Source: Escherichia coli (lineage in GTDB: Bacteria; Pseudomonadota; Gammaproteobacteria; Enterobacterales; Enterobacteriaceae). From it: 64,000 bases of DNA. A program made the position numbers. The DNA is taken from the NCBI RefSeq assembly GCF_001677475.2, contig NZ_CP012498.1. One strand, given 5' to 3'. This document shows, in pieces, positions 59,001-62,000 of this stretch; positions within the stretch are counted from its first letter, which is position 1; every line of letters starts with the position of its first letter.

Positions 59001-62000
59001 GTCGCATGTTCGTAGCAAAATGACAGGGATTACAAAAACCTGGTGTGATCCGAATATCGGCGTGTCCCTGATTACATCCGGGGTTAAGGAACAGATGGCT
59101 GTACATGCTAATACAAGAGTGAGCTCATTCCAGGCTGACAATATCATTGTGCACCGTAATGAACCTGACTACCTTTCCCGTCGCATTTATAATGCTGAAC
59201 AGCGTGAGTCTATCATTAATGTTATCAATGAACGGCAGAAGTTGCTTATTAAACGAGTTAATGATGTCATCAGCCGTTTCACCGACTATACACATGTAAT
59301 GTGTGTTGGTGGTGGGGCTGAAATTGTGGCCGAGGCTGTGAAGAACCTGACTAGGGTTCCTGATAAGCGCTTTTATCTGAGCTCATCCCCGCAGTTTGAT
59401 TTAGTCATGGGAATGATAAAAATGAAAGGTGGTGTGATTAATGAGTGATGAAAATAAATCCAGACGCTGCTCATTTGAACTTTTCCCGGATGAACGGACA
59501 GGAGATAAGATAGCAGATGAGCTCATTGCAAATGAAAAACTGAAGGAGCGAGGACGTTTCATGCGCGCGATGTTAGTTACTGGTGCGGCGTTTGCAGCTA
59601 TAGATAAACGTCTTCCTTTGCTGATATCGGAGTTACTGACAGAAAATACGACTCTGGATGATATTAATAAGGTGATTTCCAGCGTAATACCAGGTGCTTT
59701 TTCGGTTGAAAAGAAATTGCTTGAATTACTGGAAAAACAATCTGGTCTCCATACGTCTGTGGATTGTAGTGCTCCTCTTACAGAGCAGAGCCTGGCGAGA
59801 AATGACGGTGAAGACCAGACCAGAAGAAACGCTGAAAATATGTTCGGAGATGACTGAACTAACCCAGCCTGGCCAGGGGAATATCTCGCCATTTAGTTGT
59901 ATAACACTGACTCAACATTTCCCGTTTCATTTGCCATTCAGGGGCGGTTCCTCGCCCCGCAAACCACACTTTCCCTTTTCCCGACTGGTTCAGTTCATCG
60001 AGTGTTTTCATTAACTTTTCACTGTTTTTACGGGGCTGGATTTCATCAAATAATCCCGGCTGCGCTATACCCGATGGTGTGAAATCAGCCAGCATGACTC
60101 CTGCCTTCATATAGCGGTACCCTTCACGCCAGACATGGTTTAACGCTCTGCATGCTGCGGCAATAATGTCCCGGCTGTCCTGTGTGGGGAATGGAAGCTT
60201 TTCCACAGCGGCATTGCTGTAACAGGGGGCTTTCACTGCAAAGGGTGACGTTCATATAAATGTCGCCACCTGCCGGCAATACTGACGCTCCCCACGTAGT
60301 TTCTCTGCGGCCCGCTCTGCATACTGAACAACAGCCTGGTGCATGGCATCTTTGTCTGTGATTCGTTCACCAAAACTGCGACTACAGACAATCTGCTGTT
60401 TTGCCGGTGGTGCTTCTTCCAGGGATATGCAGGACTCGCCGTTGAGTTCGCGTACCGTACGCTCAAGAATGACGCTGAAGTTTTTCCGGATGAATGCCGT
60501 GTTCGCCTGCGCCAGCTGCAGTGCTGTGTTAATACCCAGCGCATTCAGCTTTTCCGTCAGTCTGCGTCCTGTTCCCCAGACCTCACCAACTGGCTGCAGC
60601 CCCAGTAGCTTCAAGATCCGATTACGGTTTTCTGTTGTCAGCGCGACCACACCGGAAAACTGCGGCCATTGCTTTGTTGCCCACTGTGCACTTTTAGCCA
60701 GCGTTTTTGTAGGCGCAATGCCCACCCCCATGGTGAGTGTTCCCTGAGCTGATGACCAAAAACCTCCGGAGAGATGCAATGATTTATCCCCCGCAAATCA
60801 ATGAATCGCCCCGGTTTTCCTGGAGAATGTTTTATCTGTGCACACGGATACTGGGTGTAAAAGAGTTCGGGTGTGATAACCCGGACTGTCATCACGTAAA
60901 GTACCTGACCTGCTCATGCGGCAGCCGTGCCTGCCCGTCCTGCGGAAAGACGGCAACAGACCTGATCTTACCCAGCAATAGTGGACACGCAGCTAAGTGA
61001 GTAAACTTTCAGTCAGAGGTGACTCACATGACAAAAACAGTATCAACCAGCAAAAAAACACGTAAACAGCATTCGCCTGAATTTCGCAGTGAAGCCCTGA
61101 AGTATTCAGGTCACTTACAGTACCACTCACTCTCATGTATACATATATATGAAATTACAATTTCAATGATATATATCATAAAAACCTATGTCAGATTAAG
61201 TTATAATCTTACTCTAAAGTTCAGAAATAAACATGGAAAACATACAGATAAATATGGAAAATATATTTAAGTTTTCTCAAACTGAATTCATAAAGTCTCA
61301 ACATACAGACAGAAGCATATATAATGGATTATGTTTTTTTATGTGTATTGATTATATATATAACAAATTAAACGACATAAAGTGTGATTTCATTTTTTTT
61401 AGCAAGACATATGCATTTTCCTCAAGATACAGAGGAATGTTACTTGCATATGAAAGCGGAACCATTAAAGACCCATACTTAATAAAAAACGGAAAGATAC
61501 ACCTAAAAAAATAAAAGGGGATGTAAATCCTGTTGAACTCTATAATATAAAGGATGATTCTTATATTATTAATTTATCTCTTTCAAATGGTACAATGTCA
61601 CATACTACAGCATTTATAAAAAATGGTCGGCATTCTTTATTCTTTGATCCAAATTTTGGTGAATATCTTGTAGGAAATAAGATGGAGCTTATAAACTTTT
61701 TAAAACAGAAATATAAAGGTTATTATAATTTAGATAATATATCACTATATTCGGCTAAATCCATTGATGGACGGAGAATACTGAACAGTAACTGTTGACG
61801 GCAATCACATAGTTTCAGCTTGGCTGACGTCGATATTCCCTTGGTGGAGCCTGTACATAGATTTGTGTAATTGCCTGATTTTGATATGTTCAATCCAGCA
61901 TCAAATGAAGGTTAATTTATGGACGAAAAACAGTTACAGGCTCTGGCTAACGAACTGGCCAAAAACCTCAAAACCCCTGAAGACCTCAGTCAGTTTGATC

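Follow-up and report, generated by a model that had tools for sequence, protein, structure and literature searches.

A 64,000-nucleotide stretch of Escherichia coli contig NZ_CP012498.1 (the window, to whose positions all coordinates refer) carries on its minus strand a UmuC-like polymerase gene without a 5′ end. The locus raises the question of which gene this was, whether anything of its function could persist, and which mobile element is responsible for the truncation. An original prediction, made from the DNA alone, had described a UmuC homolog deleted from its N-terminal side at a junction of IS91 type. We find that the segment is the decayed 3′ three-quarters of an impB gene of the IncI (incompatibility group I) type, which codes for a UmuC-like Y-family polymerase, and that it is most likely a non-functional relic of an impCAB operon, a reading to which we assign a probability of roughly 85% on the basis of sequence comparison. 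The remnant is an ordinary pseudogene, and public annotation already labels it as such in related plasmids. The window is part of a pEHEC-type (enterohaemolysin) virulence plasmid harboring ehxCABD, sta1 and genes of the gentisate pathway. This plasmid type is one of Shiga-toxin E. coli negative for the enterocyte effacement locus (LEE), with cattle, food and wild birds as sources (source information for strain RM9088 is given in PMC10562709).

The identity of the gene was established by alignment to reference ImpB sequences and by comparison with plasmids carrying an intact impCAB operon, the two checks originally proposed, and both returned an N-terminally truncated and damaged impB. The remnant showed 96 to 98% DNA identity to the intact impB genes of plasmids pSE11-1 (NC_011419; ImpB WP_000457498.1) and pla2 (NZ_AP025753; WP_286347573.1) over impB nucleotides (nt) 310 to 1275. 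Using ImpB of pSE11-1 as the tblastn query, residues 133 to 425 (425 being the stop) were matched at 97.6% identity with an E value of 0, far beyond chance, and residues 104 to 126 were matched in a second frame. A megablast search of 59400–61400 against PLSDB matched thousands of plasmids over query positions 1 to 1406, corresponding to the window up to 60805, and many of them harbor an intact “Y-family DNA polymerase.” The homology had been predicted to start at about 60779, near residue 140. However, the TTG at 60779 is only a mechanical start of an open reading frame (ORF), and DNA homology continues to 60805, which corresponds to impB codon 104.

The Pfam analysis of the two mechanical ORFs (60252–60779 and 59859–60236) identified C-terminal domains only, namely IMS_C (E values of 9e-10 and 7e-8, the domain being split by a stop codon), a weak IMS_HHH and DUF4113 (E value of 6e-21), in agreement with the predicted N-terminal deletion of a UmuC-like gene. 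The regions retained are the thumb with its helix–hairpin–helix region, the little finger (IMS_C) and DUF4113. The palm is lost along with the first 103 codons, which house the catalytic carboxylates D6 and, in the SIDE motif, D101 and E102; no Pfam match to the palm/fingers domain IMS (PF00817) was obtained in the remnant, whose homology begins at codon 104. The chromosomal UmuC subunit of E. coli DNA polymerase V belongs to the same family and has the same C-terminal set of IMS_C and DUF4113. ImpB is a plasmid paralogue and not the chromosomal umuC, and the copy in the window differs from both in having neither a catalytic domain nor a UmuD-type partner.

The absence of a umuD or impA partner, as originally claimed, was confirmed across the window, where tblastn searches with the first 103 residues of ImpB, with ImpA and with ImpC found none of the three (best E value for ImpA and ImpC, 0.12). 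The region upstream of impC is deleted and the DNA upstream of the remnant now consists of insertion sequence (IS) debris. No promoter-like site was found on the minus strand within about 360 base pairs (bp) upstream of the remnant, although no explicit LexA box search was made. In place of a continuous ORF of about 424 codons, the locus has a gene truncated at its 5′ end, frameshifted by a 19-bp deletion and interrupted by an in-frame TGA. Because all three catalytic carboxylates, the start codon, the promoter and the UmuD′-type partners are absent, the remnant very probably makes no polymerase and would not be expected to have a function.

The small lesions within the remnant also differed from what had been described. 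A frameshift had been placed near 60240, but no insertion or deletion is present there; the two mechanical ORFs lie in one frame and are separated by the TGA codon, which takes the place of CGG/CGA. The actual frameshift, missed in the original prediction, is the 19-bp deletion at 60738/60739. Because this deletion shifts the frame, in-frame homology seems to start only at residue 133, which is probably what lay behind the earlier estimate of about residue 140. The edges of the deletion showed no direct repeats beyond 1 bp of microhomology in the alignment to pSE11-1. Codon 294 reads TGA in the window versus CGA (arginine) in pla2, p1RM9088 and pMFDS1022581_1, the TGA being private to the window among the records compared, and a PLSDB search with 60205–60290 returned no record at 99% identity. 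As neither the relatives nor PLSDB matched, the stop codon is most likely a late C-to-T change private to this lineage. The nine substitutions from pSE11-1 clustered around this codon were also considered as a scar of decay or gene conversion. This was rejected, as eight of the nine bases are found in the intact impB of pla2; the only member of the cluster that is not allelic is the nonsense change itself.

Table 1. Coordinates of the impB remnant, its lesions and the adjoining elements in the window.
Feature	Position	Strand	Details
impB pseudogene remnant	59859–60805	−	impB nt 310–1275, codons 104–424 plus stop; from DNA alignment to pSE11-1 impB, tblastn, Pfam and annotation bounds in p1RM9088
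In-frame TGA replacing Arg294	60252–60254	−	Single C>T on coding strand, window position 60254; CGA in relatives
Cluster of nine substitutions relative to pSE11-1 impB	60228–60266	−	Eight of nine represent an allelic variant
19-bp deletion site	60738–60739	−	impB nt 377–395, within codons 126–132; frameshifting; common to p1RM9088 and pMFDS1022581_1
IS629-type (IS3 family) terminal inverted repeat tip, about 40 bp	60802–60841	+	Outer end toward impB; sequence TGAATCGCCCCGGTTTTCCTGGAGAATGTTTTATCTGTG
Internal fragment of IS91-family transposase gene	60840–60964	+	Gene nt 131–255, about codons 44–85; part of the zinc-binding domain
IS3 left end, first 140 bp	60963–61102	+	Left inverted repeat and orfA codons 1–25, ATG at 61028; starts TGATCTTACCC
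stbB-type plasmid stability gene	59441–59857	+	Convergent with impB; Pfam Plasmid_stab_B; synteny with pSE11-1

The surroundings of the remnant are those of an impCAB operon in plasmids of the I complex (IncI1/K/B/O). In pSE11-1 the gene order is parA, a hypothetical gene, parM and stbB, followed by convergent impB (424 amino acids), the umuD-like impA and the DinI-like impC. Intact impC-impA-impB follows stbB in both pSE11-1 and pla2, and the ehx plasmid NZ_CP027463 has the same arrangement with a frameshifted impB. The remnant occupies the same position, convergent with stbB and with the same parA-parM-stbB genes upstream, and stbB is the last intact gene of this IncI/K-type parA-parM-stbB-impBAC backbone block. 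Relative to pSE11-1 and pla2, the window lacks the first 309 nt of impB, impA, impC and the promoter, and additionally carries the 19-bp deletion and the stop codon.

Seven plasmids in PLSDB and 15 complete E. coli genomes in RefSeq, two lists that overlap in some records, carry an identical mosaic (99.3 to 99.6% identity). The umuC pseudogene of p1RM9088 (FRV13_RS00950) and 14 other RefSeq E. coli plasmids of pEHEC type show the same truncation, the same 19-bp deletion and the same succession of IS629 tip, IS91 and IS3 sequence. These copies differ from the window in having CGA at codon 294 and in about nine further bases per 1.75 kb. In the relatives, the NCBI Prokaryotic Genome Annotation Pipeline (PGAP) labels the gene “umuC, frameshifted; incomplete; missing N-terminus,” with bounds corresponding to 59859–60805 of the window, and adds an incomplete “transposase zinc-binding domain” pseudogene.

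At the point where impB is truncated, less than 300 bp bring together four different sequences. The original prediction counted three successive events, whereas the sequence shows at least four junctions plus two small lesions. The sequence touching impB is the tip of an IS629-type terminal inverted repeat, which matches the IS629 end in the pO157-like plasmid CP088063 at 38 of 40 positions (two mismatches), the reference element being one whose orfB protein cluster carries the name IS629. The first four nucleotides of the tip, TGAA, coincide with the sequence of impB itself, and the impB/IS629-tip junction reads CAAATCAATGAAYCGCCCCGG, a stretch of IS629 body sequence being GAACTCAGGCTGCC. No transposase sequence of the IS629-type element is present at the locus, only the 40-bp repeat tip.

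The transposase fragment of the IS91 family was correctly noticed, as it matches Pfam PF14319 (Zn_Tnp_IS91) over profile positions 29 to 70 of 90; its proposed contact with impB did not hold, since the IS629-type tip lies between them. The fragment spans 125 nt of a 1,200-nt gene and shows 96% identity to an IncI-backbone element encoding WP_000948429. This IS91-family element is 1,684 bp long, starts with GAAC-CACGGCAGCC (GAAC-CACGG...) and ends with ...TTTCCTATACGT (the right end also read as CCTATACGT), followed by GAAC or CAAG. The HUH/Y2 catalytic domain and both ends of the element are absent at the locus. A second piece of the same element lies at 36511–36824, comprising its left part without the first 53 bp and ending at transposase nt 43. 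The two pieces have the same orientation and lie 24 kb apart. If they came from one element, a gap of 87 bp would separate them; the relatives carry many IS91 fragments.

The IS91 fragment is cut by an IS3 end, as predicted, with the start of IS3 at 60963 and not at 60966. This IS3 fragment is 96.4% identical to IS3 of p199, and the remainder of IS3, including the right repeat, orfB and the DDE domain, is missing. Another IS3 left end is found at 26819–27594, where an identical 27-bp tip is followed by 778 bp with 90% identity to IS3, representing a truncated and diverged IS3-like copy.

The boundaries, the lesions, the missing partner genes and the recurrence of the mosaic across many assemblies can be observed directly, whereas the order and mechanism of the events are inferred. 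An IS629-type element would first have inserted into impB at nt 309/310, placing its terminal repeat flush with codon 104. The far side, with the 5′ end of impB, impA, impC and the SOS promoter, would then have been lost. Subsequently, an IS91-family element may have replaced all but 40 bp of the IS629-type element, with the left part of IS91 losing about 440 bp afterwards. IS3 would have inserted at nt 255 of the IS91 transposase gene, and would then itself have been truncated after 140 bp. The 19-bp deletion within the remnant, common to all relatives with the mosaic, is likely to have followed, and the C-to-T change giving the stop at codon 294 in this window only would have come last.

The central step of this history draws on two other plasmids. 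Complete IS91-family copies, from two different members of the family, begin directly after position 42 of an IS629-type tip in Escherichia fergusonii pRHB38-C01_2 (L011 2501–2560) and in Shigella pWR501 (L012 1804–1860). Both copies sit at the GAAC that forms positions 39 to 42 of the IS629 repeat, and the boundary agrees to within 3 bp with the switch from IS629 tip to IS91 in the window. Together with right flanks that do not continue IS629, this points to a hot spot for targeting or, alternatively, to a repeat tip that was mobilised along with the element. Additionally, an independent IS629-type insertion lies in the same orientation at impB nt 73/74 in pWS4437A1_52 (L014 2803/2804), and therefore IS629-type insertions in impB do occur; four related PLSDB plasmid records show such an independent insertion elsewhere in impB (nt 73/74, as checked in pWS4437A1_52). 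The IS629-type element of pWS4437A1_52 is itself interrupted after about 525 bp, beside a group II intron reverse transcriptase gene.

Several observations weigh against an initial IS629 insertion. In PLSDB no intermediate was found in which impB nt 310 meets a complete IS629 or IS91, and the junction is carried by the 7 mosaic plasmids only; without such an intermediate the order of events cannot be proven. At the breakpoint, the impB bases that were replaced are TGAAC, the same as the IS629 tip, which for a random IS629 insertion would be a coincidence of about 1 in 1000. The GAAC within it is a target of the IS91 family. Furthermore, the right flank of IS91 in pRHB38-C01_2 and pWR501 is not the continuation of IS629, and therefore these two loci are not simple insertions of IS91 into IS629. 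Apart from these observations, a scan of genome contigs for the IS629-tip/IS91 junction TTATCTGTGAACCACGGCAGCC gave zero matches, and a literature search on the IS629 repeat sequence gave papers on IS6110 only.

The GAAC target favors an alternative closer to the predicted IS91-type junction, which we consider possible but rather unlikely. Here the IS629 tip would have been carried along as extra sequence on the left of an IS91-family element that inserted at GAAC inside impB, and IS629 would never have transposed there. Rolling-circle replication reading through past the left end and stopping at GAAC, positions 2 to 5 of the repeat, could produce such an extension. An IS91-type origin is conceivable because the breakpoint is a natural GAAC: intact impB reads CAAT-GAAC-ATTTC there, and its 5′ part beyond GAAC is ATTTCATC. 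The IS91-family element always has GAAC at its left end and GAAC or CAAG after its right end, in keeping with insertion 5′ of a GAAC/CAAG target. The same IS629 tip also stands to the left of two different IS91-family members without the rest of IS629 on the right. If true, this course of events would document, in natural DNA, that an IS91-family element had mobilised part of another IS.

However, the junction of tip and IS91 is rare, as about 3,900 matching PLSDB records reduce to one E. fergusonii plasmid and one ancestral pINV locus of Shigella and enteroinvasive E. coli. Because of this rarity, the actively mobile extended unit that the alternative calls for is not evident. In all three instances the IS629 tip is complete with its T (TGAAC), which is what a genuine IS629 end should show, and elements of IS629 type insert into impB in the same orientation elsewhere, as seen in pWS4437A1_52. 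The alternative leans on one-ended transposition of IS91 ending at GAAC, a process described in the literature that would also have to have operated here. An IS91-type origin of the truncation is not the best-supported reading, and we favor initial insertion of an IS629-type element over it by roughly three to one.

The original description taken exactly as given is highly improbable. The mechanical ORF limits at 60779 and 60236/60252 and the presence of the IS91 zinc-binding domain agree with it, but its details are refuted by homology up to 60805, the shared frame of the two ORFs, the intervening IS629 tip and the start of IS3 at 60963. It is still less probable that the 125-codon C-terminal ORF (59859–60236) has been kept for a function of its own, for example as a decoy for the clamp or UmuD′ that modulates host polymerase V. 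This ORF is intact and little changed relative to functional alleles, it contains QPGLF, which resembles a β-clamp–binding motif, in addition to a well-scoring DUF4113, and plasmid pO113 likewise retains the 3′ end of impB. However, it has a GTG start without a promoter-like site upstream on the same strand, and recent inactivation, together with its location next to the essential stbB gene, accounts for its conservation. The substitutions are too few for a test of selection, and in pCFSAN004179G the remnant is lost entirely. Least probable of all, to the point of being negligible, is a sequencing or assembly artefact in a gene that is really intact. Only the window has the nonsense base at 60254, and this base could in principle be an error, but 7 plasmid records in PLSDB and 15 genomes in RefSeq share the identical truncation, 19-bp deletion and IS mosaic, so that correcting errors restores no intact gene; nor does the window contain impA, impC or the lost 309 nt anywhere.

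Other plasmids also carry an inactivated impB in the same backbone position, each with a different and independent lesion. In pO113 (NC_007365) the last 174 nt of impB are left beside an IS66-family element, and in NZ_CP027463 a 1-bp deletion lies at impB nt 946 with impA and impC intact. In the IncI plasmid p199 an 11-bp deletion is present and homology is lost 5′ of nt 94; the fourth case is the IS629-type insertion in pWS4437A1_52. Overexpression of impCAB is reported to be toxic to the host, although negative selection conserves the operon in the I-complex plasmids themselves (PMC10286972). Repeated loss of impB after transfer to an IncF-type virulence plasmid is unsurprising and fits this toxicity. 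Enterohaemolysin plasmids of Shiga-toxin E. coli inherited the SOS mutagenesis operon impCAB together with the IncI/K-type stability block, and they have lost the operon more than once and in different ways. The nested IS junctions and the private nonsense mutation can serve this plasmid family as lineage markers only. The practical value of the analysis is in the corrected coordinates and lesion types, and the finding matters little otherwise.

The stability block itself, composed of parA, the hypothetical gene, parM and stbB (56949–59857), is of IncI/K type with about 97% identity to IncI plasmids. The plasmid family around it is typed IncFIA/IncFIB or IncFIB+IncI-gamma/K1, indicating a hybrid backbone. 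Elsewhere in the window, the Rfam scan gave a full-length match to the Hfq-binding small RNA isrC at 41433–41555 on the minus strand (146.6 bits against a gathering score of 39), the sole match in the whole window and with none at the impB locus. To the right of the mosaic, the IS graveyard extends further, with an IS256/Mutator-family transposase fragment at 61919–62260, cut at about 62251, and an IS3-family element at 62400–63700 (orfA 62492–62776, orfB 62833–63645). From 61103, directly after the IS3 end, AT-rich DNA leads into a YopT-type (Peptidase_C58) cysteine protease gene at 61233–61799, itself within AT-rich DNA. The gene is frameshifted by the loss of one A in the A-run at 61505–61511 (seven versus eight). 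It is intact in p1RM9088, where it encodes 188 amino acids, and a diverged paralogue is found beside IS630 in pCFSAN004179G.
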